From Pseudomonadota bacterium (GTDB lineage: Bacteria; Pseudomonadota; Gammaproteobacteria; JAKAQQ01), in the NCBI GenBank assembly GCA_021798115.1, contig JAJZYM010000002.1:166687-230686 (forward strand): 64,000 bases of DNA, in the 5' to 3' direction. Below the pieces are notes generated by a model. It made no database searches and was not told where the DNA came from. It saw nothing but the letters and a program-made list of their open reading frames with translations. Positions 11,629 to 44,398 of the stretch are shown one piece after another. Both the position numbers and the translations under genes were made by a program. The stretch's first letter is position 1; the number at the start of each line of letters is the position of its first letter.

Positions 11629-11632
11629 TTTC

Positions 11633-25294: not shown

Positions 25295-25466
25295 GCTTGA
25301 AACCTCTCGCTCCGGAAAGCGAAGCCAGTATAGCGGGAGGCCACGAACTGAAACGGGCTGGACATGCGGCCCTCTTCATGATGCGTAGGATGTCGCGTCG
25401 GGAATCGTGTCTATAATGAATCTCCCGATGACGCACTTGCGCTTCGGGGTATGATCCTTCGCATTC

Positions 25467-26564
25467 GTGTCCCCGCGCCTCATGTCCGGTTCCTCTGTCG
25501 TTTTCTCCGCCCCTGGTAAAGTGGTCCTCATCGGCGAATACGCTGTTCTGGAAAATGGAGCAGCCTACGTACGTGCGGTCGACGTGCGCGCACGCGTGCG
25601 TATCGATTCGCACGCCTCCAAACACCTTCTGGAAGCGCCGGACATCAACGTCGCGGAAATCGAGTTTGAGGCTACGGCAGGCCGCAAACCGATCTGGCGA
25701 CGCTCGGACGGCAATCTCCAAGCTCCGCGCGAACTTGACCTGGCGGGCACCGTTCTGGCTGACGTCCTCGCCAGGAGCACGCCGCCACCTTGCCGCATCC
25801 GTCTTGATACCTCGGCGTTTTTTGCCGAACTCGGCCGAGGAGGACGCACCAAGATCGGGCTCGGATCGAGCGCGGCGCTGACCGTCGCCCTCGATGCCGC
25901 CATCCACGTCTGGACGTGGGGGCCCGAACACGGCGGGAAGCATGAGGATCAGACCACGGTTCTGACCCGCCTTCAAGCACTCCACACGGGGCATCAGGGT
26001 GGCCGCGGAAGCGGTCTCGACATCGCGGCGAGCCTGTGTGGAGGGACCTTCGTCTATCGGCGGGGTGAATCTCACCCCAAAATCGCCCCTCTCCCGCTCC
26101 CGGACGGGCTTGAGTTTCTCTGCGTCTGGACCGGTCGTTCCTCCTCAACGGGCGGATTTCTCGAACGCCTGGCGGCCTGGCGTCGCCGCAACGAGCGCGC
26201 GTACGAACGCTTCATGAATGATCTTGCACATCTCTCGGATCAAGGAATCGACGCGGCATCCCGCGGCGACGCCGATCGGTTTTGCGCGACTGTCAGTGAC
26301 TACAGGCGACTCCTGGACGGGCTCGGATCGGCCGCGTCGCTTCCGATCGTCTCACCCGTTCACCGGCGCCTCGAACACCTTGCAACAAAAAACGGCGTGA
26401 CGTACAAACCGTCCGGCGCCGGCGGCGGGGACATCGGTATAGCGTTCGCAGCGGATCCCCGTGGGGCGCAGCGTTTCCGGGATGCGGCCAGCAACGAGGG
26501 GTTCCTCGTCCTCTCCTGCCCTGAGGCCCCCGCCGGTCTCCGGCGGGAGGCGGAGACGACTTAG
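25467..26564 (+). CDS. mvaK2: Phosphomevalonate kinase (GHMP kinase family).
   Basis: [58 protein letters not shown]. Mevalonate kinase is encoded separately in the fusion gene. Confidence 0.8.
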
Positions 26565-27703
26565 GCGCTTCGTCCGGCTTGGCGCCGCAGTTCGTCGAGG
26601 CTGATGGCGACTGTAGACCCGGCAAGAGATTCACTCGTGCTCGGCCTCTCGTAAAGGATGGGAAGCTCGGGTGCGAGAGATCCTTCGGTGCGCGGCCCGC
26701 GCAAGTGCACCAGGAGGGCCTTGAGGGGGTGGGCGAACGTGTCGTTGACCGCCGTTCCCTCGTAGCCGCAATGCGCCATGCAGTTGTCGCATTTGGGATG
26801 CTTGCCATACCCGTAGGATTCCCAATCGGTTTCTTCCATGAGAGCACGGAACGTCGGCGCTGTCCCCTCCCCGACCAGAAGGTAACAGGGCTTCTGCCAG
26901 CCGAAAATGTTATACGTCGGGTTGCTCCACGGGGTGCACTGGTAGGTTTGGTTCCCGGCGAGGAAATCAAGGAAGAGGCTCGACTGGTTGAACACCCAGC
27001 GGCGGCGGCCTTCTTTCCCCCGACGAAAAATGGCACGAAAGAGTTCCTTGCTCTTTTGACGGGGTAGAAAACGGTCTTGGCGCGGAGCCCGCTCGTAACT
27101 GTAGCCCGGTGAGACCGTGATCCCTTCCACGCCGAGGTCCATGCAGTAATCAAAGAAGCGCGCGACCTCGTCGGGGTCTTCGCTCTGAAAAAGGGTGCAG
27201 TTGACGGTGACACGGTGACCCCGATCGCGCGCAGCGCGGATGGCCTCCGTCGCACGGACGAACACCCCGGTCTGGCACACCGAGGCGTCGTGACGTTCTT
27301 CAAGCCCGTCGAGATGGACCGAGAAGGTCAAGTAGGGCGAAGGTTTGTAATCGTCGAGTCTCTTCACGAGAAGAAGAGCGTTCGTGCACAGGTAGACGAA
27401 CTTCTTGCGCGCGATGATCCCCTCGACGATCGTGGGGAGCTCCTTGTGAAGAAGGGGTTCACCTCCCGGAATCGAGACGATCGGAGCGCCACATTCGTCG
27501 ACGGCATGAAGCGCATCCTCAACGCTCATGCGACGGCGCAAAGTCTCCTCGGGGTAATCGATTTTTCCACAACCACTGCAGGCCAGGTTGCACTGGAAGA
27601 GTGGCTCGAGCATCAGCACGAGAGGGTAACGTTTGTTGCCCTTGAGCTTTTGAGACAGGATGTAGCGACCGACACGGTACTGTTGAATCAGGGGAACAGA
27701 CAT
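26561..27703 (-). CDS. hpnH: Adenosylhopane synthase HpnH (radical SAM).
   Basis: [22 protein letters not shown]...[22 protein letters not shown], which contains the CxxxCxxC motif. Start chosen at 27703. Confidence 0.9.
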
Positions 27704-27723
27704 GATTGCGAACCTCGAGGCGG

Positions 27724-28356
27724 TCAGGTCACCGCGGGAGAAACGGGGGTGTGGGCCCGGAGGCCGGACGGGGGGAAACAAAGAAGATCCTGGACACGAT
27801 CGAAGTATTCGCCGCGAAGGGCCCACCATTCCATCAGAAACCAGGGCGTGAAGATTCCGGGCGTCTCCTCCACCGCCGTGTCGAGCTCGTCGGGAGCATA
27901 GTTACGGTACGCCGCAACCTCCTCGGGATGAACGACAGGAACGGTTGATGTCCGTCCCACGAAAACCCAGCACAGTTCGTGTTCCGAACCGGCGGCTCCA
28001 TACGAAGCCTGATAACGGAACTTGTAGACGTAATGGAGAGGGGTCTCGAGCCCGAGCTCTTGGCCCATGCGGCGGCGGGCGGCCTCCGCCGTCTCCTCCC
28101 CCAGACGCGGGTGGCTACAGCAAGCGTTCGACCAGTAAAGCGGCCACAGACGTTTGCCCGAGCTCCTCTGCTGGAGAAGCACCGAACCATCGTCTCGGAA
28201 AAGAAACACCGAAAAGGCACGGTGAAGAAGGCCCTCGCCGTCGTGGCAGAGTCGTTTGCTGGCGCTCCCGGTCGGCCGGTCATCCGCGTCGACCAGGATG
28301 AGAGGTTCCTCATCGTTCGAGACAGAAACGGATGCAGCGGGGCGATCAAGGAGCAC
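27724..28356 (-). CDS. idi: Isopentenyl-diphosphate delta-isomerase, type 1 (Nudix fold).
   Basis: [10 protein letters not shown]...[24 protein letters not shown]...[11 protein letters not shown]. The GTG start overlaps the upstream stop region by 11 nt. Confidence 0.9.
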
Positions 28357-30634
28357 GAACGCTCACCTCAAAGGCCTGATAGCCCGCGTCGTTCATCGCG
28401 TGAAGGATGCGTTTCGTATCCTCCGGGCAGAGCGCGATGACGGCGCCGCCGCCGCCGCCGCCGGTCAATTTGGCGCCCAGAGCGCCGTTTTCGCGCGCAA
28501 TCTGGACAAGCTCTTCAAGTTCCCATGTCGAGACACGAAGCGATGTCAGAAGCCCGTGGCAGAGGTTCATGAGCTCTCCGAGTTTGGCCAGATCACCCTC
28601 GCGCACGGCCGCCAAACCTTCTTGTGTGAGGTGGTCGATCTCATCAAAAATCCGCTCGTACAGTACCGGGTGCTTTTCCCATGAAGAACGTACCCGTGCC
28701 ACCATCTTGGCGGTCAGGCTTTCGACACGGCTCAGGGCGACAACGAACTTCAGCTCGCTGGCCGGTTCGAGAAACGTCATCGCGGGTTGAGCCTTGGCAT
28801 CGTAAAGAAGAAAACGTCCGTACGTCGCCACGGTGTTATCGATCCCGGAAGCCGTTCCGTGCGCGTTCTGCTCGCAGGCGTAGGCCAGGGTGTTGATCTG
28901 TTCGTCGTCCAGGCCGATCTTGTAATAGAGGTTGAGCGCGCGCGCGATCGATACCGCCATGGCGGCGGACCCGCCCAGCCCCATCGCCCGTGGCACCTGT
29001 GGATAGACCTCGATGCGCATCGGCTGGTCTTGAATACCCAACCGTTCGAGCAACATCAGAATCGAGTTCTGGAACGTGTCCGGATTGTCCGGCCGTCGGT
29101 GGACCCTCTGCTCGAGACTCCAGCGTGGAACGATCAAATGTACCCCTTCGTCTGCAGGCCTGATACGTGTGCGGATGGCGAGCGGAATGGGCGCACTCAA
29201 CGCGCGGCGCTTGTAAACAACGGCGTGTTCCCCGAGAAGAATGATCTTCCCGTGGCCCACCCCCCAGGGACCGTCGTTCGTTTCAGCGCGCACAGGCGTT
29301 TTCTCGACATGCTGGGAACGTATCTCCCGGAGCACCTCCTGAGCTTTCCATACCTTGATCTCCCCGCTTTCAATCAGTTGTTCGACCACCCGATCAAAGA
29401 CATCCGGCGTGGCACCAGCGGCCGCGGCGACGGTACGGGCGTGAAGCGTCATGTGGCCACGCTGGATGCCGTCGGTCACCAGAGCACGCAGCGCGGAAAA
29501 ATTCTGGGCGAGGCCCACCGCCCCCATGACTTCCGCAAGTTCCGTGGCCGAGCGAACACCCATCATTCTCAGGTTGACGGCGACCGTGGGGTTGGACTGC
29601 AAGGGACCACCCACGATCCCGACCTTGAGGGGGAGGGAAATCTGCCCAACGAGATCCCCCTGCTCGTTGCGGGTCCAGCGTGTCAAGGAACGGTAACGTC
29701 CGTCTCGGGCGGCGTAGGCGTGCGCGGCCGCCTCGATCGCCCGCCAGTCGTTGCCGGTCGCCAGCGCGACGGCGTCGATACCGTTCATGATCCCTTTGTT
29801 GTGTGTGGCCGCCCGATAAGGATCCACCAGCGCAAGATCCGTGGCCTGAACGATCCCGTCACAGACTTCCTGCCCGTCGTAGACCTGCTTGCCCAGCATG
29901 CGGGCCGGAATGGTGCAGGTGGCCGTCACCATGGCCCGATCGGTCAAATTGGAAAGAATACGAAGAAGAGCACGCCCCCCGGTGATGTTTTCGACAAGCG
30001 TCGCGATGCCTTCACACATCGTGTTGACCAGATTCGCGCCCATCGCGTCGCGCGTGTCGACGAGAAGATGTAGAACAAGCATATCGCGACCGGTCGAGGG
30101 TGCCACATGGCTGTGCACCTCGATATCGCGCGCCCCTCCCCCACGCGCCAGCATCTTCGGATGGATGCTGTTGGCCAACGCGAGAATCTCATCCTTGCGC
30201 TGGAGCAGTGCCGCTCGGGCCTCGGCAGGGTGCGGGACGTCAAGAACCTGGATTTGCCCGATCAGGATGGGATCGGTGGAGACACTGCGGAAGCCACCCG
30301 CAGCGCGCACGAGTTTCGCGGCCGAGCAGAGCGCGGCCACAATCGAAGGCTCCTCAACAACCAGCGGGACGACATAATCGCGGCCGTTCACGAAAAAGTT
30401 GAGACCGAGACCTACGGGAAGACCCATGACCGCGATCACGTTCTCGATCATCTTGTCCGCGTGGTGCAGACGAAGGGTGTGCTTGCCGACGGTCAGGAGA
30501 CGGTAATCATCCTCGTCGATAAACCCACGTTCGTGGATGGCCCGCACCCGCTCGGTCACGCTGAGCTTATGAAAGTTCGGTATACGCGAACGCTCCATGA
30601 CAAGCCCCTTCGAAGCCGTAAGGTTGTTCGTCAC
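28346..30634 (-). CDS. mvaA-mvk: Bifunctional fusion of class II HMG-CoA reductase (aa ~1-440) and mevalonate kinase (aa ~456-762).
   Basis: The HMGR part has ENVIAVMGLPVG, VVPLVVEEPSIVAA, DAMGANLVNTMCEG and THNKGIMNGIDAVALATGNDWRA. After the linker QHVEKTPVRAETND, the MVK part has HGKIILLGEHAVVY, GLGGSAAMAVS and KLTGGGGGGAVIAL. This is one uninterrupted 762-aa ORF. Confidence 0.9.
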   Translation of the reverse strand: MTNNLTASKGLVMERSRIPNFHKLSVTERVRAIHERGFIDEDDYRLLTVGKHTLRLHHADKMIENVIAVMGLPVGLGLNFFVNGRDYVVPLVVEEPSIVAALCSAAKLVRAAGGFRSVSTDPILIGQIQVLDVPHPAEARAALLQRKDEILALANSIHPKMLARGGGARDIEVHSHVAPSTGRDMLVLHLLVDTRDAMGANLVNTMCEGIATLVENITGGRALLRILSNLTDRAMVTATCTIPARMLGKQVYDGQEVCDGIVQATDLALVDPYRAATHNKGIMNGIDAVALATGNDWRAIEAAAHAYAARDGRYRSLTRWTRNEQGDLVGQISLPLKVGIVGGPLQSNPTVAVNLRMMGVRSATELAEVMGAVGLAQNFSALRALVTDGIQRGHMTLHARTVAAAAGATPDVFDRVVEQLIESGEIKVWKAQEVLREIRSQHVEKTPVRAETNDGPWGVGHGKIILLGEHAVVYKRRALSAPIPLAIRTRIRPADEGVHLIVPRWSLEQRVHRRPDNPDTFQNSILMLLERLGIQDQPMRIEVYPQVPRAMGLGGSAAMAVSIARALNLYYKIGLDDEQINTLAYACEQNAHGTASGIDNTVATYGRFLLYDAKAQPAMTFLEPASELKFVVALSRVESLTAKMVARVRSSWEKHPVLYERIFDEIDHLTQEGLAAVREGDLAKLGELMNLCHGLLTSLRVSTWELEELVQIARENGALGAKLTGGGGGGAVIALCPEDTKRILHAMNDAGYQAFEVSVRAP

Positions 30635-30756
30635 CGCCCCGTTCGTTCAGGATTGCGTACGGACAACCGTCGGTTCATTATAAACCGTTCAGGACTTGAA
30701 ACCCCGCGGGGCCGTCCTTGGTCTCTCTATCTCGGGCCACACCTTTCGAGCTCCGT

Positions 30757-31842
30757 TCAGGGGGATTCCATGGAAGGTGCCCGTCGCCGTGACCAGAACC
30801 GACGTCCTTCCGCCCACTGCCAGGAAAGCAGCGCAAAGCCGCCGTAGACGATTTCACGCAGGCGCTTGAGCACCGAAACCGCAAGCATGAGGTCGGCCGG
30901 GAGTCCGAGCACCCCGCCAAGGAAGACGAGGCCCATTTCCTGGATGCCCAAAGCCCCGGGAACGAAGAACCCCCCCGTTCGCAAGGCCTGAACGCCGGCC
31001 TCAAGAATCATCGCATCGAGAGGGTCGACTGGACGTCCCATGAGACGGAGTGCAATCCACACTTCTCCCGCGCCCACCAGAAGACCGGCGATCTGGCCGG
31101 CAAAGCACCACAGAAGTGCTGCACCACGGCGATAGATCGCACGAATGTCCCGATCGATCTCCGCGGCCGTATCTCCGTTCTTGCCGGCGAGCACCTCAAG
31201 CCCCGTAAGACGCCGAAGAGCCCGTCCGCAGAAACCGACCAACCCTCCGTGCTGGAAAAGAACAAAAATCCCCACAATGGCCAGCGCCACGGCCACCGCT
31301 GGCAAGGCGTGGACGAAGAGCGAGCCTCGGCCGACAAAGACGGCAAGCAGCACGAACCCGAAGAGCGCGAGCACAATCTGGCTCAAGAGAGTCACAGTGA
31401 CTTCCACCACCACCGTCGCTGTCGCAAACGCAAGAGGCAGGCCTCGGCGTGTCACGAGATGCACACCGGCAACCTCTCCCCCGATGCGCACGACCGGAAG
31501 GACAGACCCGACAGCCTCGCGAATCGACGCAACCCAGAAAAGGTAGGGGACAGATGCCGCTTCGGGATATTCCGGCCGGAGCCGGATGAGCGAACGCCAC
31601 CCTAAAGCATCAAGGGTCAGCGGAAGTGCATGATAGGGAACAAGCCAAAAAGCCCCCAGGCCGGCCGCGGCCAAAGCGGCCACGACGGCCTCGCCGGCAT
31701 GTCGGGCGAAAACGAGGAAAGCCGCTGCCAGAAGAGCGAGCCCCCCGAGGTAGAGAGCAAAGGAGCCCCATACACGGCGAGGACTCGCGCGAGGAGACAG
31801 GTCGGCTTGGGAGCCCGACGAGGAAACGGCCGCATCAAGCAT
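30757..31842 (-). CDS. hpnL: Flippase-like / UPF0104 membrane protein, HpnL-like (copy 2).
   Basis: It is polytopic with the same architecture as 10552-11628. It starts 2 nt after the hpnN stop. Confidence 0.7.
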   Translation of the reverse strand: MLDAAVSSSGSQADLSPRASPRRVWGSFALYLGGLALLAAAFLVFARHAGEAVVAALAAAGLGAFWLVPYHALPLTLDALGWRSLIRLRPEYPEAASVPYLFWVASIREAVGSVLPVVRIGGEVAGVHLVTRRGLPLAFATATVVVEVTVTLLSQIVLALFGFVLLAVFVGRGSLFVHALPAVAVALAIVGIFVLFQHGGLVGFCGRALRRLTGLEVLAGKNGDTAAEIDRDIRAIYRRGAALLWCFAGQIAGLLVGAGEVWIALRLMGRPVDPLDAMILEAGVQALRTGGFFVPGALGIQEMGLVFLGGVLGLPADLMLAVSVLKRLREIVYGGFALLSWQWAEGRRFWSRRRAPSMESP

Positions 31843-31844
31843 CT

Positions 31845-34511: not shown

Positions 34512-35578
34512 GGATTCGTTTCCCGCCATGCATCCCGCCCCCCGGCGCAGGGCTCCTCGGGCGGGAGGAGACGAGCCCCCTCCCCGAGCCGGCAGACAAT
34601 CAGGCGACGCACGCCTGCCACGCTCAAGAGCCGCTCTCGAACAGCCGCGAGCGCCTCGTTCGTGCAGACGGCCTTGACCTGCGGCCCGGCGTCCACGGTG
34701 AAGAACACCTCGTGGCCGCTCCGTCGAAGAGCCACAATTTCGTGCAGCGCCTCGACCGTTGCCCCGCGCCAATAAAGAAGACCCGGGCGGGCGGACATCG
34801 CGAGCGCGTGCATCTTGAGGCAGCTGGCTTCGGACACCGCGGCGAGACGTGAAAAATCATGATGGCGAATGGCCTCACGCGCCTCATCGAGATCCGCGGG
34901 ATGGCTGGAGACCCAGGCCGTGGCGTACGGAGAGGTCGCAAAGCTTCGACGCATACCCTCCCCGGAACCGATTTCTTTTTCCTCCTCGCGGATCACGGCG
35001 ACCACGACGTTGAGCGGCCAATCCGTGGGGGACAGAAGTGGACGGGCTACAGCATCACTCCCGTCCGGACTCTGGCCCGTCGACATTTCGACAAACCCGC
35101 CGTAGAGCGAGCGGGGGGCCGAACCGGAGGCCTCACGGGCGAGACAGGAGCGCTCGTTTTCCGAGAGACGAAGTCCGAGGGCGGCCTCCGCGGCGACGAG
35201 GAGCGCGGCGAAGCCCGAAGCGGAGGAAGCGAGCCCCGCACCCGTCGGAAAATCGTTGACACTCTCGACTTCCGCCGCACCCGCATCGGGAACGTAACGG
35301 CGAAGACGGTCGAGAAGCGCTCGAACACGGCGGCGTGTGTTGACGTCGGCCTCCGCTCTTCCGAGCCGGATCCGGTCGTCGCCACCGGATCCCGTGAAAT
35401 GCACGCACGTCTGTGTCGCCATCCCATTGAGCGTCATCGAAATCGACCCGACGGCGGGACGGTTGCCCTCCCCGTCTTTTTTCCCCCAGTACTTGACGAG
35501 CGCAATGTTCGGATGCGCCACTGCGCAGGCTTGTCCGAACGTGCCGTCGGCGCGGGAGGATCGAGGGGAGTACGTCAT
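34508..35578 (-). CDS. mvaD: Diphosphomevalonate decarboxylase.
   Basis: PNIALVKYWGKKD, NDFPTGAGLASSASGFAALL, SGSAPRSLYGGF. Start chosen at MTYSPRS (35578). Confidence 0.9.
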   Translation of the reverse strand: MTYSPRSSRADGTFGQACAVAHPNIALVKYWGKKDGEGNRPAVGSISMTLNGMATQTCVHFTGSGGDDRIRLGRAEADVNTRRRVRALLDRLRRYVPDAGAAEVESVNDFPTGAGLASSASGFAALLVAAEAALGLRLSENERSCLAREASGSAPRSLYGGFVEMSTGQSPDGSDAVARPLLSPTDWPLNVVVAVIREEEKEIGSGEGMRRSFATSPYATAWVSSHPADLDEAREAIRHHDFSRLAAVSEASCLKMHALAMSARPGLLYWRGATVEALHEIVALRRSGHEVFFTVDAGPQVKAVCTNEALAAVRERLLSVAGVRRLIVCRLGEGARLLPPEEPCAGGRDAWRETNP

Positions 35579-35726
35579 GGATGAAAGTCGAGGCAACCGT
35601 CTTGGGGATCCCAGGCGGAGAAGTTTGACTAGAACCTTTGATTCTATCAGAGCAGCTTTGGGCGATCGGGTCAAAAGTGGTGACTTGCGTGTCTTGCCAT
35701 GCCAGGACGCGCTGTCGGTTGGAGTT

Positions 35727-36464
35727 TTAGAACGGGAGAAACGGCCCCGAATCGCTCAGGCAACGCGCGGACCGCGCCAGGGCGTCGAAGGCTTTTTTCT
35801 GACTGTGGGCCAGCATCCAGAGTCTCCGCGGCGACACACCCATGACAGCCGTGAGCCGCTGCCACAAGGGAGCATCCCACCGTCCCCACGGATCGAGAAG
35901 GCGGGTCAACGAGGAGGGGATTTCGTCGTCACGGCGATCAAGGACGGCGCGAAGGACACCCCACGGGACGCCGTGTTCCCTGGCCGCTCGGGCGATCGCG
36001 CAACTCTCCATATCGACGACGGCTCCGGGCCAGCGCCGGTCCCAGGCGCGCTTGTCTTCGACCCCGAGAACACGCGCCGAACCCACCAGAACGTGGGCCG
36101 AAGAGACGTGCGGGAGTGCCGTAAGTCGTTGCCTGAGGGCCGCATGCATCCCACTGTCCGCCTCGAATTCTTCTCCGCTCTCGGCGTCCACGAGGAGAGA
36201 GGGAAGAACCAGAGATCCCGGAACAAGACCGGGGCTGAGGGCCCCGCAGTATCCGAATGAAAGCAGTGCGTCGCAACCGGCCTTGAGAAGGCTCTCGGCG
36301 GCTGCCCCGGCCCGCGCAGCTCCCATGCCAGAGACCCACAGGCGTAGGTTCGGGCGCAGGATGATCTCACGGTCCAGAGAGGGACGTTTGAGGCCGAATA
36401 CCCGGGCTTCATCGGCGAGGGCGCAGACAACCCCGAGGCGCAGCGGGTCGTTCAAACGACGCAA
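35727..36464 (-). CDS. hpnG: Hopanoid-associated phosphorylase HpnG (PNP/MTAN family).
   Basis: LGVVCALADEAR...SGMGAARA...LLSFGYCGAL...VVDMESCAIA, immediately downstream of shc. Confidence 0.8.
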   Translation of the reverse strand: MRRLNDPLRLGVVCALADEARVFGLKRPSLDREIILRPNLRLWVSGMGAARAGAAAESLLKAGCDALLSFGYCGALSPGLVPGSLVLPSLLVDAESGEEFEADSGMHAALRQRLTALPHVSSAHVLVGSARVLGVEDKRAWDRRWPGAVVDMESCAIARAAREHGVPWGVLRAVLDRRDDEIPSSLTRLLDPWGRWDAPLWQRLTAVMGVSPRRLWMLAHSQKKAFDALARSARCLSDSGPFLPF

Positions 36465-38458
36465 TGCGCCGCTTCGTCCCCACCGCTCGCCTGTACGGAT
36501 GCCCGTGTCTTTCGGGACAACCGTCGGTACATTGCGAGCGCCCAGAGTGGAAAGTACAAACTGTAGCCGTGGTATTTCAGGTAGAACACGCGGGGGAACC
36601 CCGGGGCGGTGTACTCGGGGTCACGCCAGGTGCCGTCCGATTCTTGGGTGCGGACGAGATAAGCGATCCCCCGCTGCACCGCGGGGCTCCGCGTCCGCTT
36701 CGCCGCCATCAACGCCAAAACCGCCCAAGCGGTCTGGAACGCCGTGCCACGCAGGTGCGTGCCGGCCAGAGAAGGATTGTCGTAACTGTCGTTCGATTCC
36801 CCCCAACTCCCATCCTCACGCTGCACAGACTCCAGCCAATGTACAGCACGGCGGATCGGTCCCGCGTCCATGTCGTACCCAGCCAACTCGAGTGCAAGAA
36901 GGACGGAAAACGTTCCGTAGATATAGTTTGTCCCCCATCGGCCATACCAGCCGCCGAACTCCTCTTGGTCGTCGAGGAGATATTCGAGGCAACGGTGCAT
37001 GCTCGTCTGCACCTCTTCGGTCGGAGATGGAAGAGATGCGAAATAACCGTAAACGTGGGCGCTCACATCGACGGTGGGGGGATCGAGAAGCGCCCCGTGA
37101 TCGGCAAAGGGAATCTCGTTGAGGTAGTCGTGGGTGTTGTCGGCATCGAAAGAGGCAAATCCTCCGTTGGCGCTCTGCATTCCGAGCAACCACCGTGTCG
37201 CCCCCTCCAGGGCCGAGGCGTAGCGCGCACGGGCCGGAAACCAACGCTGAAACGCCCAAGCGACCATCGATGTGTCGTCAAGGTCGGGGTAATACGCGTT
37301 GTTGTACTGGAACGCCCAGCCTCCCGGCTCGAGATCAGGCCGTTCGACGGCCCAATCCCCGCGCAGTTCGGTGACCTGCCGCTCGGCAAGCCAGGCGAGC
37401 GCACGGTCAATCGCCTCGCACGGAGGGTTCTCGAGCTCTTCGAGCGCGAGCACCGCGAGCGCCGTGTCCCAAATCGGGGAGACGCACGGCTGACAGTAGG
37501 CTTCATCGTCACGCTCGACGACGAGACGGCGGAGAGCCTCGCGCGCATCTTCACAAAGCGGATGATCCGCAGGATAGCCGAGAAGACGAAATGCTTCGTA
37601 GGCATTGACCATGGCAGGGAAAATGGCGCCCAATCCGTCGCGGCCATTGAGACGTTCGGTGAACCAGAGAAGAGCCCGACGGAGGGCACGGCGACGCACA
37701 AATCCCGGAATCAGGGGTTCGAGGCCTCGACCCAGTCGATCAAGAAAGAAGAAGAACCTGTTCAGTGTCGATCGGGCAATGAAGTAATGATGTTCCTGCC
37801 ACGGTGGGGTCACGAAGAGTTCCGGAATGTCAACACCGCGCGGATTGCGCGCCCGCGCCTTGAGGCTGGTCAGGACAAAAAGAGGAACCATCACGGTCCG
37901 CGACCAGTAGGAAACCTTGGTGATGTGAAACGGGAACCACCGGGGAAGGAGGACGACCTCGACCGGAATGAACGGAACCGCTCGCCAGGGCACCTGGGCA
38001 AACATGGCGAGGGCGATGCGTGTGAAAACGTTACACCGCGCGGCACCACCGCGTGCGAGCACCAGCGCGCGTGCTCGGCGCATGTGATCCGCGTCAGGAT
38101 CGTCCCCGGCCAGCTTGAGAGCGTAATACGCTTTCACGGTTGCGCTGAGATCGCTTCGCCCCCCCTGATAAAGCGGCCAACCGCCCTCGGAGTTCTGCAC
38201 GCGCCGAATGTATACGGCCAGGCGCGCTTCCAGGAAACTATCGATTTCGTCCATGAAGTGCATCATGAGGATATATTCGGCCGGGATGGTGACATCGGCT
38301 TCGAGCTCGTAGCACCAGTGCCCGTCGGGCGCCTGATCTCCGAGCAGCGCATCGGTCGCCGCACGAAGGGCGTCGTGCAACACCTCATCGTCCGCTCCGT
38401 CGAGAATCGTCCGCGGCGGAGGCATCCGTTCCTTCGTCCGTGGTTCGGCAGAGATCAT
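36452..38458 (-). CDS. shc: Squalene-hopene cyclase.
   Basis: DGHWCYELEADVTIPAEYILMMHF, the DxDD motif (YYPDLDDTSMVAWAF), and repeated QW-type segments (EDGSWGE..., SDGTWRD...). The ATGA overlap with the sqs stop sets the start at 38458. Confidence 0.95.
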   Translation of the reverse strand: MISAEPRTKERMPPPRTILDGADDEVLHDALRAATDALLGDQAPDGHWCYELEADVTIPAEYILMMHFMDEIDSFLEARLAVYIRRVQNSEGGWPLYQGGRSDLSATVKAYYALKLAGDDPDADHMRRARALVLARGGAARCNVFTRIALAMFAQVPWRAVPFIPVEVVLLPRWFPFHITKVSYWSRTVMVPLFVLTSLKARARNPRGVDIPELFVTPPWQEHHYFIARSTLNRFFFFLDRLGRGLEPLIPGFVRRRALRRALLWFTERLNGRDGLGAIFPAMVNAYEAFRLLGYPADHPLCEDAREALRRLVVERDDEAYCQPCVSPIWDTALAVLALEELENPPCEAIDRALAWLAERQVTELRGDWAVERPDLEPGGWAFQYNNAYYPDLDDTSMVAWAFQRWFPARARYASALEGATRWLLGMQSANGGFASFDADNTHDYLNEIPFADHGALLDPPTVDVSAHVYGYFASLPSPTEEVQTSMHRCLEYLLDDQEEFGGWYGRWGTNYIYGTFSVLLALELAGYDMDAGPIRRAVHWLESVQREDGSWGESNDSYDNPSLAGTHLRGTAFQTAWAVLALMAAKRTRSPAVQRGIAYLVRTQESDGTWRDPEYTAPGFPRVFYLKYHGYSLYFPLWALAMYRRLSRKTRASVQASGGDEAAHCVV

Positions 38459-39582
38459 TCGGGGGGGGACTGCGTGGGGTAGGGCGAAGCTTCGAAAGCC
38501 ACGCTCTCGTCGTTCGCCAACGGCAGGGATCGGGTCGTGAGAGAGAAGAGTGTCCGCAGCGTCCCGTCCTGCCCTGCCGTCAGGGCGAGAACGCGGCTGA
38601 TGGTGCGTACACTGCGCCGGCTGATTTTGACGTCTTCTCCGCACCGGTATCCCGGGTGTGTCGCCAATTTCCGTAACGTGAAGACGGCGTAACCGATGGC
38701 CCAGAGACAAAATTCGCGGATGCCGCGCTGCTCACGAGGAATCGTCAATGTGAACGTCAAGGCGCGATGAAGATGACGGTGGGCAAGCGCCATGAGATCC
38801 CGCACACCGGCCTCGAAGCCCGCGCGAGGTTCAAGCGTCGCCAGGCTGCAACCGCGGCGGGCAAAAACATCCCGCGGGAACCAGCACACACCGTGTTTGC
38901 GATCCTCCCAAAAATCCTTGAGAATGTTCGTCATCTGCAAACCGAGGCCGAAAGAGACGGCAAGAGACGAGAGCTTGGCGCGCCGCTCCGCCACGCGAGC
39001 GTCGTAAAGGCAGAAGAGCTCGGTCAGCATCTCTCCAACGACGCCTGCGACGTAATAGCAGTATCGGTCGAGCTCAGCGACGTCTTCGAGACCCTCGAGA
39101 CTCACGTGGCGCTGGAAACGGGGCATGCCCTCACACATGATCTCGAGAGTGCGGTTGAGGCAGCGACGAACGGAGGTGTCGAGTTTGTGCGTAAACGCCA
39201 CCACCCGCGGCAACTCGGCCAAAAGCTCCCGCTCGGCAGGTGTGGTGCGCTGCGAGAGTCGGGGCAGAAGCTCGGACACGAAGGGCTTCGGATCCTGATC
39301 GCCGGAGACGACCGCACGAAAGCGGAGGTGAAAACGGTTCTTGTCCTGAGGATCGAGTTCCGGTTCGTCCTCGATCGTGTCCGCGATGCGGCAAAGAAGA
39401 TACGCGTCCGCCACCACCCAGCGCAGGACCGGAGGGAGACGCGGGATGGTCAACGCGAACGTCCGCGACGTTCCGGCCAGCATGGCGGAGAGGAAGCGGG
39501 CCTCGTCGTCGCTGACGACCGTCGCTCTGAGGGGGCTTTCCGTAACGCTCACCGGGACTCGTGCATCAGCAAGGAAGGACAA
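38455..39582 (-). CDS. sqs: Squalene synthase (single-enzyme SQS type, trans-isoprenyl diphosphate synthase head-to-head family).
   Basis: SRTFALTIPRLP, LLCRIADTIEDEP, YCYYVAGVVGEML, GLGLQMTNILKDFWED. At 375 aa it is longer than typical HpnC/HpnD. No second paralog or hpnE is present in the window. Confidence 0.8.
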   Translation of the reverse strand: MSFLADARVPVSVTESPLRATVVSDDEARFLSAMLAGTSRTFALTIPRLPPVLRWVVADAYLLCRIADTIEDEPELDPQDKNRFHLRFRAVVSGDQDPKPFVSELLPRLSQRTTPAERELLAELPRVVAFTHKLDTSVRRCLNRTLEIMCEGMPRFQRHVSLEGLEDVAELDRYCYYVAGVVGEMLTELFCLYDARVAERRAKLSSLAVSFGLGLQMTNILKDFWEDRKHGVCWFPRDVFARRGCSLATLEPRAGFEAGVRDLMALAHRHLHRALTFTLTIPREQRGIREFCLWAIGYAVFTLRKLATHPGYRCGEDVKISRRSVRTISRVLALTAGQDGTLRTLFSLTTRSLPLANDESVAFEASPYPTQSPPE

Positions 39583-39687
39583 TGTCCGTGAGTGGTTGCG
39601 GCGTTTTGCCGACGCTTCTCAGACGGGTCGACGAAGCGGGTTTGCGCCGCATTCTTGTAGCCGGGTTGTTCATTAAACGTGTCACTA

Positions 39688-40719
39688 TTATAACGAACGC
39701 CGGACGGGCGGCGAAGGGAGATCCAGCCACCCACGGCTGGAAAACCATTCCAGAGCATCCGCAACGGCTTCGCGCCACGGGCGGGCCTGATAGCCGAGTT
39801 CTTTTTGCGCTTTTTCAGAACTGTAATACATCTTCTTACGAGCCATCCGTAGCGCATCGAGCGTCACGCGCGGTTCGCGCCCCGTGCGCCGGGCCCAAAA
39901 CTCGTCGATCCAGGCCACGGGGTAGAGAGGCTGTCGGGGAAGTCTGATACTTGGGGGGCGCCGGCCGGCTTCCTCGGCAACCCCGCGAAGGAGTTCCTTG
40001 AGGGAAAGATTGGTCCCACCGAGAATGTAGCGTTCGCCGATCCGCCCCTGCTCGTAGGCCAGCCGATGCCCGCGCGCGACGTCCGCGACATGCACAACGT
40101 TCAGCCCCGTATCCACGTAGGCGGGAATTCGGCCCCGTGCGGCGTCAAGGATCATGAGGCCGGTCGGTGTGGGCTTGATGTCGCGGGGGCCGACGGGCGC
40201 CGAAGGGCAGACGATGACCACGGGGGCCCCGTCTCGGGCCACGCGAGCCCGAACTCGCTCTTCGGCCAGGAATTTCGAACGTTTGTACGCACCCACCATG
40301 TCCGCAAGGCTCACAGGGGTGGATTCATCGGCCAGTCGGCCGTCGGTAAAGGCGGCGAGTGTCGCCACGCTGCTCGTGTAAACGATCCGCTCGACGCCCT
40401 CCCTGAGAGCCGCGGTGAGGAGATTTTCCGTGCCGCCGACATTGATTCGCTCAAGCTCTTCGGGGTCGCGGACCCAAAGGCGGTAATCGGCGGCGACGTG
40501 GAAGAGGGCTCGGCAGCCTTTCAGGGCCCGGACGAGCGATGCGGGGTCACGAAGGTCGCCCTCCACGATCTCGACGTCGAGCCCGTCGAGATTGTCTCGT
40601 GGGCTGCCCGGACGCACCAGGACACGGAGTTCGTGTCCTGCGGCGAGAAGCTCGCGCGCGACGGCCGATCCCACGAATCCCGTTCCTCCGGTCAAGAGAG
40701 TCGTCACGCGGGGCCTCAC
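39688..40719 (-). CDS. hpnA: Hopanoid-associated sugar epimerase/dehydratase-family protein HpnA.
   Basis: It has a Rossmann motif (LLTGGTGFVGSAV), ...FHVAADYRLW..., and the YKRSK catalytic motif. It lies at the head of the hpn array. Confidence 0.85.
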   Translation of the reverse strand: MRPRVTTLLTGGTGFVGSAVARELLAAGHELRVLVRPGSPRDNLDGLDVEIVEGDLRDPASLVRALKGCRALFHVAADYRLWVRDPEELERINVGGTENLLTAALREGVERIVYTSSVATLAAFTDGRLADESTPVSLADMVGAYKRSKFLAEERVRARVARDGAPVVIVCPSAPVGPRDIKPTPTGLMILDAARGRIPAYVDTGLNVVHVADVARGHRLAYEQGRIGERYILGGTNLSLKELLRGVAEEAGRRPPSIRLPRQPLYPVAWIDEFWARRTGREPRVTLDALRMARKKMYYSSEKAQKELGYQARPWREAVADALEWFSSRGWLDLPSPPVRRSL

Positions 40720-40852
40720 GTAGCTCGATCGCAGGCATTCTAACCCGCGCCAAGGGCCGAGAATCTCGGGCCCGCCGCGGCCGCCGTATACTGCGGCGCG
40801 TGAACTTTGCGCCGCCCGTCACCCCCTTGCCCGCCCCTCCCCCGGAGCCTCT

Positions 40853-42007
40853 GTGGTCGGCGTGCTGACGGTTCTCGGCATACTCGCGTACGCCCTCGCC
40901 GGCGGCTACCTTTTCCTGGCCACCTTCGCTCTCCTCGGGGGAGCACGCACACTCCGCCCCCCTTCCCTCTCGCTGCCCGAAGGAGTGAGCGTCCTCGTCC
41001 CCTTGCACGGCTCGTTCGCGGGCCTGGAGAGATGCCTCGAATCGCTCTTCCGGCAGGATCACCCCTGCTACGAACTTTTGTTTGGAACCTGCGATCCCGA
41101 AGACTCTGCGCTCGCGACGCTCGAAGAGGCCGCGCGTCGCCACCCGAAGACGCCTGTCCGGGTGTTCATCACGCCGCCTCCACCCGTGGGCACGAACCCC
41201 AAAGTCGTCAATCTTGAAGCTCTCGAGCCGCACGCACAACACAATCTCCTGGTTCTGATTGACGCCGACATCGTCCTCGAAACCGAGCACCTGCGCCGCG
41301 TCACGGCGGCTCTCCACGACCCCGCAACCGGCCTGGTGACCTGTCCCTACGGCGTCGAGATGCCGGCTCGGGCCAATCTCTGGCAGAAACTCGCCGCTCT
41401 CTACATCGGCGACTGGTTCTACACCTCCGTCCTCATCGGCTCTCTTGTCGCGCCTGAGGAGCACGGCTTCGGAGCCACCCTCGCGCTCCGTCGCTCCACC
41501 CTTGCGGCCGCGGGCGGGCTGGCCGCTCTGCGGCATGTCCTGGCCGACGATCACGTCCTTCCCGCACGTGTTCGTGCCCTGGGCCTTCGCACCGGGATCC
41601 TGGAGAGCGGGGTAAAAACCGTTGTCAACGAAACCACGTTCCGCACTCTTTGGGCGCACGAAAAACGCTGGCTTGGGACGATCCGAGCCCTCGATCCCTG
41701 GGGCTACCTCGGTCTTCCCGTGGGGTTGACGAGCGTCCCGCTCCTCTTGGGGGTTGTTCTGCTCGGGGGTGGTGCTGTCGCTTGGGGGGGATTTCTGATC
41801 CTTGCCGCCGGGCGGCTTGTGTTACACTTTCTTGCGTGGAATCGCTCGCGAAGCGGAAGGTTGAGCGCCGCCGTCTTGCTCCTTCCGGCGCGCGATTTTC
41901 TGACCCTGGCCGAGTGGCTAGCCGCCCTGGGCGCACGACGTCTCGTGTGGAGCGGGTCCCCTCTTACGATCGACGGCCGCGGGCAGTTGGAGGACAACGA
42001 TCCATGA
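40853..42007 (+). CDS. hpnI: Hopanoid glycosyltransferase HpnI (GT2).
   Basis: It has an N-terminal TM segment, VSVLVPLHG, and the DxD motif LVLIDADIV. It is followed by hpnJ and hpnK. Confidence 0.8.
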   Translation: MVGVLTVLGILAYALAGGYLFLATFALLGGARTLRPPSLSLPEGVSVLVPLHGSFAGLERCLESLFRQDHPCYELLFGTCDPEDSALATLEEAARRHPKTPVRVFITPPPPVGTNPKVVNLEALEPHAQHNLLVLIDADIVLETEHLRRVTAALHDPATGLVTCPYGVEMPARANLWQKLAALYIGDWFYTSVLIGSLVAPEEHGFGATLALRRSTLAAAGGLAALRHVLADDHVLPARVRALGLRTGILESGVKTVVNETTFRTLWAHEKRWLGTIRALDPWGYLGLPVGLTSVPLLLGVVLLGGGAVAWGGFLILAAGRLVLHFLAWNRSRSGRLSAAVLLLPARDFLTLAEWLAALGARRLVWSGSPLTIDGRGQLEDNDP

Positions 42008-43437
42008 GCCTTAAAACCCTTCTTCTCCACCCCCCTTCCTACGACGGCTTCGACGGCGGCGCCGGCTCCCGCTATCAGGCTCGTCGCGAAATCCGCTCTT
42101 TCTGGTACCCGACGTGGCTGGCCCAGCCCGCCGCTCTCATTCCGGGCAGCAAACTCATCGATGCTCCGGCCGACGGGCTCAGTGTCGAGGAAGTGCTCGA
42201 GCGTTCCCGTGACTACGAGTTCGTGGTCATGCACACGAGCTCTCCCTCGTTCGCGGCCGACGCCGAGTTCGCCGCGCGTCTCAAGGAGCGTTCGCCGGGC
42301 CTCCTCATCGCGATGGTCGGCGCGAAAGTGGCGGTAGAGCCGGAAGCCTCCCTTCAGGGGGCTCCCGCCGTCGATTTTGTCGCCCGCGAGGAGTTCGACT
42401 ACACACTCCTCGAAGTCGCGCAGGGCCGCCCCTTCCGTGAGGTTGACGGCGTGAGTTACCGGGCAGCGGACGGTGGCTTCGTCCACAACAAGCCGCGCGC
42501 GACGCTCGAGAACATGGACGAGCTTCCGTTCGTTTCCGAGGTCTATAAGCGGGATCTCACGATCGAGAACTACTTCATCGGCTACCTCAAGCACCCCTAT
42601 ATCTCGTTCTACACCGGACGGGGTTGCCGTTCCAAATGCACATTCTGTCTGTGGCCACAGACCGTCGGTGGGCACCGCTACCGTGTGCGCAGTCCGGAGC
42701 ACGTGATCGAGGAAGTCCGCTACATCCAGAAAAACTTCCCGCAGGTCAAAGAGATCTTCTTTGACGACGACACGTTCACCGACTTCAAACCCCGCGCCGA
42801 AGAGATCGCACGTGGTCTGGGCAAACTCGGTGTCACCTGGTCGTGCAATGCCAAGGCCAACGTCCCCTACGAGACGCTCAAGGTCATGCGCGACAACGGG
42901 CTCAGGCTTCTGCTCGTCGGCTACGAGAGCGGGAACCAGGATATTCTCTTCAACATCAAAAAAGGACTCCGTCTCGACATCGCCCGCCGCTTCTCGAAGG
43001 ATTGCCGCGATCTCGGCATCACGATCCACGGCACCTTCATTCTCGGACTCCCGGGAGAAACGCGCGAGACGATCCAGGAGACCATACGTTTCGCCCAGGA
43101 GATCAACCCGCACACCATTCAGGTGTCCCTCGCCGCCCCCTACCCCGGCACGCGTCTTTACCGCGAGGCGATCGAGAACGGCTGGCTCGACCTGAGTCAG
43201 GCGGACCGCCTGGTCAGCGACAACGGCTTTCAGCTCATTCCTCTGAGCTACCCGCATCTCGACCATAAGGAAATCTTCGAATCGGTCGCCACGTTTTACA
43301 AGCGTTTCTACTTTCGCCCGAGCAAGATCGCCGAGCTTGTCGGGGAGATGCTGCGCAGCCCCGAGATGATGAAACGGCGCTTGCGCGAAGGGCTGGAGTT
43401 CGCCCGCTTCCTTCGTGAGCGACACGCGGCGCTCTGA
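42004..43437 (+). CDS. hpnJ: Hopanoid biosynthesis B12-binding radical SAM protein HpnJ.
   Basis: MSLKTLLLHPPSYDGFDGGAGSRYQARREI..., with radical SAM motif GRGCRSKCTFCLWP. It has an ATGA overlap with the hpnI stop. Confidence 0.88.
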   Translation: MSLKTLLLHPPSYDGFDGGAGSRYQARREIRSFWYPTWLAQPAALIPGSKLIDAPADGLSVEEVLERSRDYEFVVMHTSSPSFAADAEFAARLKERSPGLLIAMVGAKVAVEPEASLQGAPAVDFVAREEFDYTLLEVAQGRPFREVDGVSYRAADGGFVHNKPRATLENMDELPFVSEVYKRDLTIENYFIGYLKHPYISFYTGRGCRSKCTFCLWPQTVGGHRYRVRSPEHVIEEVRYIQKNFPQVKEIFFDDDTFTDFKPRAEEIARGLGKLGVTWSCNAKANVPYETLKVMRDNGLRLLLVGYESGNQDILFNIKKGLRLDIARRFSKDCRDLGITIHGTFILGLPGETRETIQETIRFAQEINPHTIQVSLAAPYPGTRLYREAIENGWLDLSQADRLVSDNGFQLIPLSYPHLDHKEIFESVATFYKRFYFRPSKIAELVGEMLRSPEMMKRRLREGLEFARFLRERHAAL

Positions 43438-44398
43438 GTCTCTCACTTCCGTGACCGGGCCGGCCACGGCTCAGCCGACGACGCCGCGAAGGACGCTCAT
43501 CGTCACGGCCGATGATTTCGGGCTCAGCCTCGAGATCAACGAAGCGGTCGAAGAAGCACACCGCACGGGAATTCTCACCTGTGCCAGCCTCATGGTCGGC
43601 GGGCCCGCCTCCGCCGACGCCATCGCCCGCGCCCGACGCCTTCCCCGTCTCGGGGTGGGACTGCATCTCACCCTGACAGCCGGACAGGCCCTTCTCGATC
43701 ACGCGTCCCTCCCCCACCTCACGGATCGTGCAGGCCGGTTTCGGGGTTCGATGCAGACGGTCTCCTTTCGCCTCGTGATCGACCGCGCCCTCCGTCGTGA
43801 GCTCCGACGCGAGATCCACGCTCAGTTCGAGGCGTTTCGCGCCAGTGGTCTTCCCCTCGATCACGTCGACACGCACAAGCACTTTCATACGCACCCTTTC
43901 GTGTTCGAAGATCTTGTAGGGATCGGACGCTCTTACGGACTTCGGAGCCTGCGGATCCCCTACGAACCTCGTCGACCGGGGCGAGCCATTACGGGCGGCT
44001 CAGCCCCTCGGGCCTCCGTTTCGACACTCGCGATGGCGCTTCCGCTCCGACGGATGCGTCGGCGATGTCGCGAGCTTGGGCTCGTATCGAACGACTGCGT
44101 CCTCGGCCTTCGCGCGAGCGGAGCCATGGACAAGGCTCATATCCTGCGGGCTCTCCGCGCCCCTCTGACGGGAGTCGTGGAACTCTATCTCCACCCGGCC
44201 ATGATTTCCGGCGCCGGAGTCGATCCACAGGCCGCCACGGCCCGCCATGCCGAGGAATACCAGGCCCTGATCGACCCCGAGATCAAGCGCGCCGCACACG
44301 ATCTCGGCTGGAAACTTTCGACGTACGGAGAATTAGCCTCCGGAACGGAGGATCGTCCGTCTTCTCCAAGCATCCCGCAGCCCGACGCCTTAGAATAA
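43415..44398 (+). CDS. hpnK: Hopanoid biosynthesis protein HpnK (YdjC-like deacetylase).
   Basis: LIVTADDFGLSLEINEAVEEAHRTGILTCASLMV...GLHLTL...HVDTHKHFH. The start is ambiguous (43415 or GTG at 43451). Confidence 0.85.
   Translation: MSDTRRSESLTSVTGPATAQPTTPRRTLIVTADDFGLSLEINEAVEEAHRTGILTCASLMVGGPASADAIARARRLPRLGVGLHLTLTAGQALLDHASLPHLTDRAGRFRGSMQTVSFRLVIDRALRRELRREIHAQFEAFRASGLPLDHVDTHKHFHTHPFVFEDLVGIGRSYGLRSLRIPYEPRRPGRAITGGSAPRASVSTLAMALPLRRMRRRCRELGLVSNDCVLGLRASGAMDKAHILRALRAPLTGVVELYLHPAMISGAGVDPQAATARHAEEYQALIDPEIKRAAHDLGWKLSTYGELASGTEDRPSSPSIPQPDALE

Follow-up and report, generated by a model that had tools for sequence, protein, structure and literature searches.

Mevalonate-pathway genes interleaved with hopanoid biosynthesis genes at a gammaproteobacterial locus

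Hopanoids are major rigidifiers of bacterial membranes and the source of geohopane biomarkers, and how the flux of isoprenoid precursors is matched to hopanoid demand is poorly understood. Here we analyze a 64-kb stretch of DNA from a member of the Pseudomonadota (GenBank assembly GCA_021798115.1, contig JAJZYM010000002.1, positions 166,687 to 230,686; hereafter the window), in which genes of the mevalonate (MVA) pathway are interleaved with hopanoid (hpn) genes. Our reading is that the locus is a hopanoid supercluster (sqs, shc and hpnH, G, I, J, K, A, N and L) with 3-hydroxy-3-methylglutaryl-CoA (HMG-CoA) reductase (HMGR) and the lower MVA pathway embedded in it, that it was rearranged from a widespread gene order and would be expressed as about three transcription units, and that its MVA genes supply the organism's general route to isoprenoid precursors; we place the probability of this reading as a whole at roughly 0.6. 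The interleaving itself is observed and stands well above chance, since the same order and flanks recur on near-identical contigs and in two more distant lineages.

A six-frame listing of open reading frames (ORFs) and family searches confirmed 14 genes between positions 25482 and 44398 (Table 1). The genes hpnA, sqs, shc, hpnG, mvaD, hpnN, hpnL, hmgr::mvk, idi and hpnH run co-directionally on the minus strand, pmk converges on hpnH from the plus strand with a 4-nt overlap, and hpnI-hpnJ-hpnK diverge from hpnA. A first-pass annotation, made from the letters and an ORF list, had named these genes, their interleaving and their tight junctions, all of which hold up; with its start codons, the junctions from hpnA to hpnH (105, -4, -13, 148, -4, 2, 122, -11 and 20 nt) were reproduced exactly, as was the pmk/hpnH overlap. 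The start codons chosen by public gene callers on near-identical contigs shift four of these values, with hpnA-sqs at 135 instead of 105 nt, sqs-shc at 29 nt (-4 in one caller) instead of -4, shc-hpnG at -4 instead of -13 and hpnL-hmgr at 158 instead of 122 nt, and leave the overall picture the same. For shc, the callers are divided between products of 657 and 668 aa, and an alternative start at 38458 creates an ATGA overlap with sqs. Independent of start choice are mvaD/hpnN (-4 nt), hpnN/hpnL (+2 nt), hmgr::mvk/idi (-11 nt) and idi/hpnH (+20 nt). The 4-nt overlap of the hpnN start with the mvaD stop is again an ATGA, and this hpnN start was chosen in five of six public gene calls.

Table 1. 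Features of the window, with profile scores and, in brackets, NCBIfam curated cut-offs.
Feature	Position	Strand	Assignment	Profile match
pmk	25482..26564	+	Probable phosphomevalonate kinase, divergent GHMP kinase	TIGR01220 95 bits (below cut-off 165.7)
hpnH	26561..27703	-	Adenosylhopane synthase (radical SAM)	TIGR03470 542.6 bits (225)
idi	27724..28356	-	Type 1 isopentenyl-diphosphate isomerase, 20 nt upstream of hpnH	NF002995 164.1 bits (127)
hmgr::mvk	28346..30598	-	Class II HMGR fused to mevalonate kinase, 11-nt overlap with idi	TIGR00532 400.6 bits (260), residues 8-399; TIGR00549 247.3 bits (163), residues 461-735
hpnL-to-hmgr::mvk spacer	30599..30756	-	TATAAT box; candidate internal promoter	
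hpnL	30757..31842	-	LPG_synthase_TM-family membrane protein, hopanoid-associated	TIGR03476 255.9 bits (195.65)
hpnN	31845..34511	-	RND/MMPL hopanoid transporter	TIGR03480 797.9 bits (751.85)
mvaD	34508..35578	-	Diphosphomevalonate decarboxylase	TIGR01240 236.6 bits (171.35)
hpnG-to-mvaD spacer	35579..35726	-	Extended -10-like TGATAGAAT; candidate internal promoter	
hpnG	35727..36455	-	Nucleoside phosphorylase/nucleosidase, hopanoid-associated	TIGR03468 134.5 bits (below cut-off 187.1)
shc	36452..38425	-	Squalene-hopene cyclase	TIGR01507 802.6 bits (431.1)
sqs	38455..39552	-	Single-enzyme (eukaryote-type) squalene synthase, replacing HpnCDE	Pfam SQS_PSY 172.9 bits; TIGR01559 103.7 bits (below cut-off 287)
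hpnA	39688..40707	-	NAD-dependent sugar epimerase/dehydratase-family protein, hopanoid-associated	TIGR03466 500 bits (367.65)
hpnI	40853..42007	+	Bacteriohopanetetrol glucosamine glycosyltransferase	TIGR03472 304.6 bits (just under cut-off 310)
hpnJ	42004..43437	+	B12-binding radical SAM enzyme (cyclitol ether formation)	TIGR03471 811.8 bits (577.6)
hpnK	43451..44398	+	YdjC-family deacetylase	TIGR03473 323.8 bits (232.6)
tRNA-Ser(tga)	23939-24028		Between a heptosyltransferase-like gene and the MFS gene flanking pmk; 1.4 kb from pmk	
hpnM-like	6915-7562	-	Second transport-like module	TIGR03481 157.9 bits (below cut-off 160.1); Pfam MlaC
hpnN paralogue	7925-10555	+	Second transport-like module	TIGR03480 653.6 bits (below cut-off 751.85); Pfam MMPL
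hpnL paralogue	10552-11628	+	Second transport-like module	TIGR03476 143.6 bits (below cut-off 195.65); Pfam LPG_synthase_TM
Sulfotransferase	11633-12904	+	Second transport-like module	Pfam Sulfotransfer_3

Proteins were assigned by applying the NCBIfam curated cut-offs, with Pfam as a second profile library, and 10 of the 14 proteins passed the cut-off for their named family (11 family matches). Among the MVA enzymes, the HMGR, mevalonate kinase (MVK), MvaD and isopentenyl-diphosphate isomerase (IDI) profiles all scored above threshold. The hmgr::mvk gene is one ORF of 750/762 aa, whose N-terminal half matches the Pseudomonas mevalonii HMGR structure 1qax (E 1e-123) and whose C-terminal half matches the MVK structure 2hfs. 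Reading its translation by eye, we found the HMGR catalytic motifs ENVI, DAMGAN, HNKGI, GNDWRA and GHMTLHAR and the MVK motifs GKIILLGEHAVV, GLGGSAA and SGIDN. For pmk, the best NCBIfam matches are all phosphomevalonate kinase (PMK) models, the Pfam GHMP_kinases_N match is weak, 3k17 (Lin0012) is the nearest solved structure in sequence, and the gene corresponds to the one flanked by mvaD and hmgr::mvk in 27 related loci. The best NCBIfam model name for the reductase, "degradative" HMGR, is misleading for the fused protein, and mevalonate catabolism was rejected as its role: the reductase is fused to MVK and lies beside PMK, diphosphomevalonate decarboxylase and IDI.

The fused protein combines two successive MVA steps and is distributed across Gammaproteobacteria, Acidobacteriota, Calditrichota, Myxococcota and Cryobacterium. 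Its sequence matches in the PDB cover one half or the other only, with no fused structure, and the top matches of a literature search for reports of an HMGR::MVK fusion were not relevant.

On the hopanoid side, the profiles account for squalene-hopene cyclase, side-chain extension by HpnH and HpnG, a squalene route and the HpnN transporter. The predicted route from farnesyl diphosphate (FPP) to squalene is sqs: its product falls below the HpnC and HpnD equivalog cut-offs as well, and its closest PDB sequences are the squalene synthases 7wgh and 1ezf. HpnN lies below the stricter NF052374 cut-off (637.8 against 1100), and hpnG matches Pfam PNP_UDP_1 on public gene calls and keeps a conserved position after shc. 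As predicted from these assignments, the cluster would carry out squalene synthesis, hopene cyclization, side-chain elaboration to bacteriohopanepolyols and hopanoid export.

The arrangement is not peculiar to one assembly. The window's HpnL is identical residue for residue on at least 23 public contigs, among them the metagenome-assembled genomes (MAGs) GCA_021852405.1, GCA_023487365.1 and GCA_027455965.1, one Joint Genome Institute (JGI) metagenome and assemblies of metagenomes in ENA, and the six near-identical contigs that we read carry 19-50 mismatches in 21 kb and the same gene order as the window. The MAG GCA_027455985.1 carries the locus as well. Outside the species, the closest MvaD proteins are 94% identical (GCA_021842065.1, L247) and 72% identical (two JGI metagenomes, L245 and L246), and both lineages preserve sdhB-sdhE-rhodanese-hpnK-J-I diverging from hpnA-sqs-shc-hpnG-mvaD-hpnN-hpnL-hmgr::mvk-idi-hpnH, with pmk and a major facilitator superfamily (MFS) gene convergent at the far end. 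In L245 (11056-13731), hpnN is called as a 682-aa protein after a 600-nt gap, whereas the otherwise identical L246 has an intact 886-aa HpnN whose gene abuts mvaD; the short call is probably an assembly or frameshift error.

Ratios of nonsynonymous to synonymous substitution (dN/dS) indicate that the MVA genes of the cluster are not decaying but are under purifying selection. Relative to the 72% lineage, for which synonymous divergence (dS) is saturated at 1.1-1.7, dN/dS was 0.043 for hmgr::mvk, 0.14 for idi, 0.19 for mvaD and 0.23 for pmk, the hpn genes spanning 0.03-0.27 (hpnH 0.045 against L245); against L247, mvaD gave 0.10. The MVA genes together span 0.04-0.23, and the fusion gene is among the most constrained of the block.

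We then asked how widely MVA and hopanoid genes are linked, using scans of one genome per species centered either on HMGR::MVK or on HpnH and taking the 80 best loci of each (for HpnH, 65-75% identical to the window protein). In the HMGR-centered set, the fusion occurs in 48 of 80 loci, normally within a mvaD-pmk-hmgr::mvk-idi cassette, and 13 of these 48 have hpnH, shc, hpnA or hpnJ within 10 kb. From the other side, an MVA cassette is present at 23 of 80 hpnH loci, with idi directly upstream of hpnH in 20 of the 23. Cultured RefSeq strains with the linkage include Dyella flava DHOC52, D. psychrodurans 4MSK11 and D. acidisoli 4MZ03 (a complete chromosome, NZ_CP064031.1), all three with hpnK-J-I diverging from mvaD-pmk-hmgr::mvk-idi-hpnH, as well as Salinisphaera aquimarina, S. 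japonica and Salinisphaera sp. RV14, where the cassette is convergent and ~2.5 kb from hpnH. Linked MAGs belong to Nevskia, Sinobacteraceae, Lysobacterales, Wenzhouxiangellaceae and Rhodospirillaceae, and three Acidobacteriota contigs (11-237 kb) carry sqs-hmgr::mvk-idi-hpnH. Recurrent neighbors in the linked loci are a family 2 glycosyltransferase (GT2) after hpnH (22), DUF2147 (10), HMG-CoA synthase (9), an MlaC-like HpnM (7) and a polyprenyl synthase (6); a role in hopanoid trafficking has been proposed for HpnM and for the DUF2147 family ("HpnT") (preprint 10.1101/2025.07.29.667474).

These counts divide the earlier claim that no hpn cluster built around the MVA pathway was known. Linkage as such is common, including in RefSeq genomes, and is already present in sequenced relatives, if under-described, which by the first-pass annotation's own standard counts against its reading as far as linkage goes; the exact interleaved order was found only in the window's lineage, the sole one among ~250 loci with mvaD beside hpnN. 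What is new is therefore the split order, in which the contiguous mvaD-pmk-hmgr::mvk block is broken by hpnN-hpnL and pmk is inverted beyond hpnH. The widespread order suggests an ancestral (hpnA)-mvaD-pmk-hmgr::mvk-idi-hpnH arrangement, from which the window would have arisen by placement of hpnN-hpnL between mvaD and hmgr::mvk and by relocation of pmk, inverted, beyond hpnH.

Probing the 80 hpnH loci with Escherichia coli IspH, Dxs and Dxr placed this linkage in a wider pattern. Across these loci, ispH lies directly upstream of hpnH in 13, dxs is within the locus in 26, idi is directly upstream of hpnH in 29, and an MVA cassette together with any of these genes of the methylerythritol phosphate (MEP) pathway occurs in none. 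Some precursor gene is present in 60 of the 80, and several of the other 20 are contigs that end close to hpnH. The slot just upstream of hpnH is that of the enzyme delivering the pair isopentenyl diphosphate (IPP) and dimethylallyl diphosphate (DMAPP), namely IspH in MEP users and IDI in MVA users and some MEP users. No hpnH locus combines the MVA cassette with MEP genes, which makes the cassette the equivalent of the MEP genes already known from hpn clusters, and the window's MVA genes would hold the position that ispH or dxs takes beside hpnH in hopanoid producers using MEP. In nine loci, idi-hpnH is found and the remainder of the MVA cassette is not, with dxs present in five of the nine; these loci come from Steroidobacteraceae and from unclassified gammaproteobacterial and proteobacterial MAGs, and one (L177) has mvaS and no hmgr in 21 kb. 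Such loci may be intermediates between MEP-linked and MVA-linked states.

Whether the embedded genes form a general or a reserved pathway turns on what accompanies them. With genes from related loci as tblastn queries, we found no match to mvaS or FPP synthase in the window, and E. coli Dxs, Dxr and IspH gave none either; the window ORFs scanned against NCBIfam and Pfam contained no thiolase or HMG_CoA_synt family member, no thiolase-specific query having been run. The first-pass annotation had listed HMG-CoA synthase, FPP synthase and thiolase as missing, and the first two absences stand by direct search while the third is carried by the family scans. Public contigs added ~9 kb of flank, extending the right side by ~6 kb and the left by ~3 kb, again with no MEP, mvaS or thiolase gene, and the mvaS and thiolase genes may lie elsewhere in the genome.

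The first-pass annotation had inferred a dedicated IPP supply, under which the host would keep a housekeeping MEP pathway while the MVA cassette feeds squalene and hopanoids, as in the terpenoid clusters of Streptomyces. The start/stop overlaps that tie MVA genes to hopanoid genes speak for such a design; bacteria with both pathways do exist (2.42% of species, including one Rhodanobacter, PMC13001223), Streptomyces being the classic case (PMC7591250); and the Steroidobacteraceae-type loci combining idi-hpnH with dxs show that hpn clusters of MEP users, too, recruit genes that balance precursors. Against this, dxs, dxr and ispH were near none of the 23 MVA-carrying hpnH loci and none of the 80 HMGR-centered loci, whereas dxs or ispH was present in 34 of the 57 hpnH loci lacking an MVA cassette. 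The cassette is also not self-contained, since mvaS was not found in the cluster (it is linked in nine related loci) and thiolase was absent from the scans, and the HMGR::MVK dN/dS of 0.043 is as expected for an essential function. In a census of 4,249 species, most MVA-carrying Gammaproteobacteria are scored as mevalonate-only, among them Dyella caseinilytica, Wenzhouxiangella, Woeseia, Legionella and Coxiella, and Dyella telluris and D. thiooxydans are scored as MEP-only (PMC13001223, Table S1); the mevalonate-only scores make a general pathway more likely. We consider a dedicated second pathway unlikely. By analogy with these relatives, the cluster's MVA genes are most likely the organism's general route to isoprenoid precursors and probably its only one, and probably not an extra pathway reserved for hopanoids.

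Several observations nevertheless weigh against the general-route supercluster that we favor. For HpnG, HpnI, Sqs and PMK the right family is the best NCBIfam match, at scores below the curated cut-off. The failure to find mvaS and FPP synthase in the window or the ~9 kb of added flank, with no thiolase in the family scans, leaves the completeness of the MVA pathway unproven. The lack of an MEP pathway in the host is argued by analogy, and in the same census the one Rhodanobacter species counted has both pathways (PMC13001223, Table S1). A scan for sigma70-type promoters placed no site in the intergenic spacers, its only hit in the region lying just upstream of pmk (25428-25455). The HMGR::MVK tree described below carries no support values.

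From sequence, we infer internal promoters in the hpnL-hmgr::mvk and hpnG-mvaD spacers. In the former, GGTTTATAATGAAC is conserved in L247 and aligns with TATACT at the same place in L245 and L246; in the latter, the extended -10-like element is conserved in L247 and not alignable in L245. None of the three spacers (135-158 nt) has a terminator-like hairpin. These features would define three units, sqs-shc-hpnG, mvaD-hpnN-hpnL and hmgr::mvk-idi-hpnH, with read-through between units possible and pmk expected to be monocistronic from its own promoter. Within the two mixed units, which we predict to be co-transcribed, stop and start codons overlap or nearly abut, so that co-translation is likely. 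The IPP-making decarboxylase MvaD would then be made together with the exporter HpnN, and the reductase-kinase and isomerase together with HpnH, the enzyme that starts side-chain extension, so that stop/start overlap could tie IPP/DMAPP production to hopanoid production and export.

The same spacers could also be read as signs of a historical accident, in which MVA and hpn genes, once acquired or shuffled together, are transcribed and regulated independently and their linkage has no functional meaning: each spacer could hold a promoter, pmk sits on the other strand with its own promoter-like site, and mvaS would lie elsewhere. This explanation is improbable. Inside the mixed units there is no space for separate promoters, given that mvaD and hpnN overlap by 4 nt, hmgr::mvk and idi overlap by 11 nt, and only 20 nt separate idi from hpnH; the order has been kept down to 72% protein identity with dS saturated, and precursor genes are linked to hpnH in three quarters of the loci (60 of 80) through two different pathways.

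We also considered whether the 19-kb block is a recently transferred genomic island, given the tRNA-Ser(tga) gene near pmk and the occurrence of hpn-linked cassettes in several phyla, a distribution implying past horizontal transfer. We rejected this possibility as very improbable on grounds of composition, repeats and flanks. GC content and GC at third codon positions (GC3) equal those of the flanking core genes (GC3 0.66-0.79 in the cluster and 0.71-0.79 in neighboring core genes), no tRNA-derived direct repeat bounds the block and no att-like repeat occurs elsewhere in the window, no integrase was seen, and the block is bordered by sdhB-sdhE-rhodanese at one end and MFS at the other in the more distant lineages too, including that at 72% identity. 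The cluster is an old chromosomal resident and not a fresh island.

A deeper history of transfer is a separate matter. In a neighbor-joining tree of HMGR::MVK without bootstrap values, most hpn-linked cassettes, the window's included, fall in one large group, outside which lie the unlinked cassettes of Pseudomonadales, Woeseiaceae and Calditrichota; the hpn-linked Salinisphaera cassettes are also outside it, with Cryobacterium and Calditrichota branches. Speculatively, MVA and hpn genes may have moved among Gammaproteobacteria, Alphaproteobacteria and Acidobacteriota as one heritable mobile module that brings its own precursor supply and displaces the host MEP pathway, with the window's lineage as its most integrated state, in which MVA enzymes and export are translationally coupled. 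We regard this as a tentative and rather doubtful proposal; if true, it would explain how MVA-only and MEP-only species coexist within one genus such as Dyella.

The genomic setting agrees with the first-pass annotation on both counts that it had raised, the identity of the flanking core genes and a gammaproteobacterial background. Family scans place sufBCDS on the left flank and sdhB, sdhA, a weak ygfZ match, pgm, serS, rarA, lolA, ftsK, trxB, lysS and prfB on the right. The best matches to SerS are 53-60% identical and come nearly all from Gammaproteobacteria of many orders; with SerS at most 60% identical to that of any species representative, the host appears to be an uncultured, deep-branching gammaproteobacterium, represented by MAG and metagenome contigs only. 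A 40-mer common to the near-identical contigs had no match in the collection of species-representative genomes. The added right flank holds recJ, rpoS, nlpD, pcm, surE and an Smr-domain gene, and the left a cis-prenyltransferase and an MFS transporter. Upstream of surE, E. coli and Pseudomonas have ispF-truD; here, ~3-6 kb past the right end of the window (L251, 1-3542), the Smr-domain gene precedes surE-pcm-nlpD-rpoS, a weak hint, short of evidence, that ispF is not where it normally lies. The cis-prenyltransferase (308 aa, UppS family, PF01255) runs off the left end of the window (1-891, minus strand) after a tricorn-like protease, and is not in the canonical frr-dxr-uppS-cdsA context, a small ORF and the MFS transporter lying beyond it.

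A second hopanoid-transport-like module (6915-12904) lies 14 kb from the main cluster and comprises an hpnM-like gene, paralogues of hpnN and hpnL, and a sulfotransferase gene. Its GC content of ~55% and GC3 of 0.60-0.65, lower than in the main cluster, suggest that it may be a later acquisition. Sulfur-related genes surround the hopanoid cluster: a rhodanese (44442-44804) between hpnK and sdhE, a sulfide:quinone-reductase-like flavoprotein (50015-51313), and small ORFs of the DsrE family and resembling pyridine-nucleotide-disulfide oxidoreductases beside the suf operon (~13776-14500, placed from L252 3062-3786). Across the 64 kb, Rfam and ARAGORN matched tRNA-Ser(tga) only, with no regulatory RNA in the cluster. 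The prfB ORF (62573-63586) begins at position 23 of the RF2 model, as would fit the programmed +1 frameshift usual for this gene if its first ~25 codons lay in a different frame.

Collectively, these data reveal no new enzyme and no new kind of system. They point to a general rule, in which hpnH is usually flanked by a gene for a last step toward IPP/DMAPP: ispH or dxs in MEP users, and in many Gammaproteobacteria and some Acidobacteriota and Alphaproteobacteria idi, usually with the whole MVA cassette. Together with the extreme interleaving described here, the rule offers a concrete setting in which to test the co-regulation of precursor supply with lipid export, for which Dyella and Salinisphaera are cultured stand-ins, and it bears on why closely related species differ in MVA or MEP use.

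Among known systems, hpn clusters with MEP genes offer one parallel. In Zymomonas mobilis, Rhodopseudomonas palustris and Burkholderia, ispH and/or dxs lie beside hpnH or shc, and in our set such loci come from Burkholderiales, Methylococcaceae, Opitutales and Planctomycetota, while four Nitrosomonas loci had neither gene beside hpnH or shc. As in the window, the gene immediately upstream of hpnH serves the last step of IPP/DMAPP supply, with further precursor genes nearby; the pathway differs, MEP there and MVA here. The MVA cassettes of Streptomyces, the closest analogue in concept, contain HMG-CoA synthase and a type 2 IDI and are not known to carry an HMGR::MVK fusion, in contrast to the window, which has a type 1 idi, no linked mvaS and a predicted membrane-lipid product. 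They share with it the physical linkage of an MVA cassette to the genes that consume its product, forming operons within terpenoid and meroterpenoid clusters such as that for endophenazine, in hosts that keep MEP for primary metabolism and use MVA for the secondary metabolite (PMC7591250).

One precedent is the subdivision 22 acidobacterium Mor1, which is reported to have shc, hpnH, a single squalene-synthase homologue in place of hpnCDE, no MEP genes and most MVA genes; these are drawn together in a gene-cluster figure and their arrangement is noted only in passing (Sinninghe Damste et al. 2017, PMC5462960). Mor1 fits the sqs-hmgr::mvk-idi-hpnH order of the three Acidobacteriota contigs and differs from the window in phylum and in having no interleaved hpnN or hpnL. 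Beyond that remark, our search of the open literature returned no described MVA-hopanoid supercluster, and a preprint on hopanoid microsynteny never mentions mevalonate (10.1101/2025.07.29.667474). The type found in Dyella, Nevskia, Sinobacteraceae, Lysobacterales and Wenzhouxiangellaceae shares with the window the fused HMGR::MVK, the divergent probable PMK, a type 1 IDI gene directly upstream of hpnH, a single Sqs, and hpnA, hpnI, hpnJ and hpnK nearby, at protein identities of 50-75%. There, the four MVA genes are contiguous and hpn genes only flank them, the GT2 gene follows hpnH in the 22 loci counted above, and mvaS lies within a few kb in nine; in the window, hpnN-hpnL splits the cassette and pmk stands inverted downstream of hpnH.

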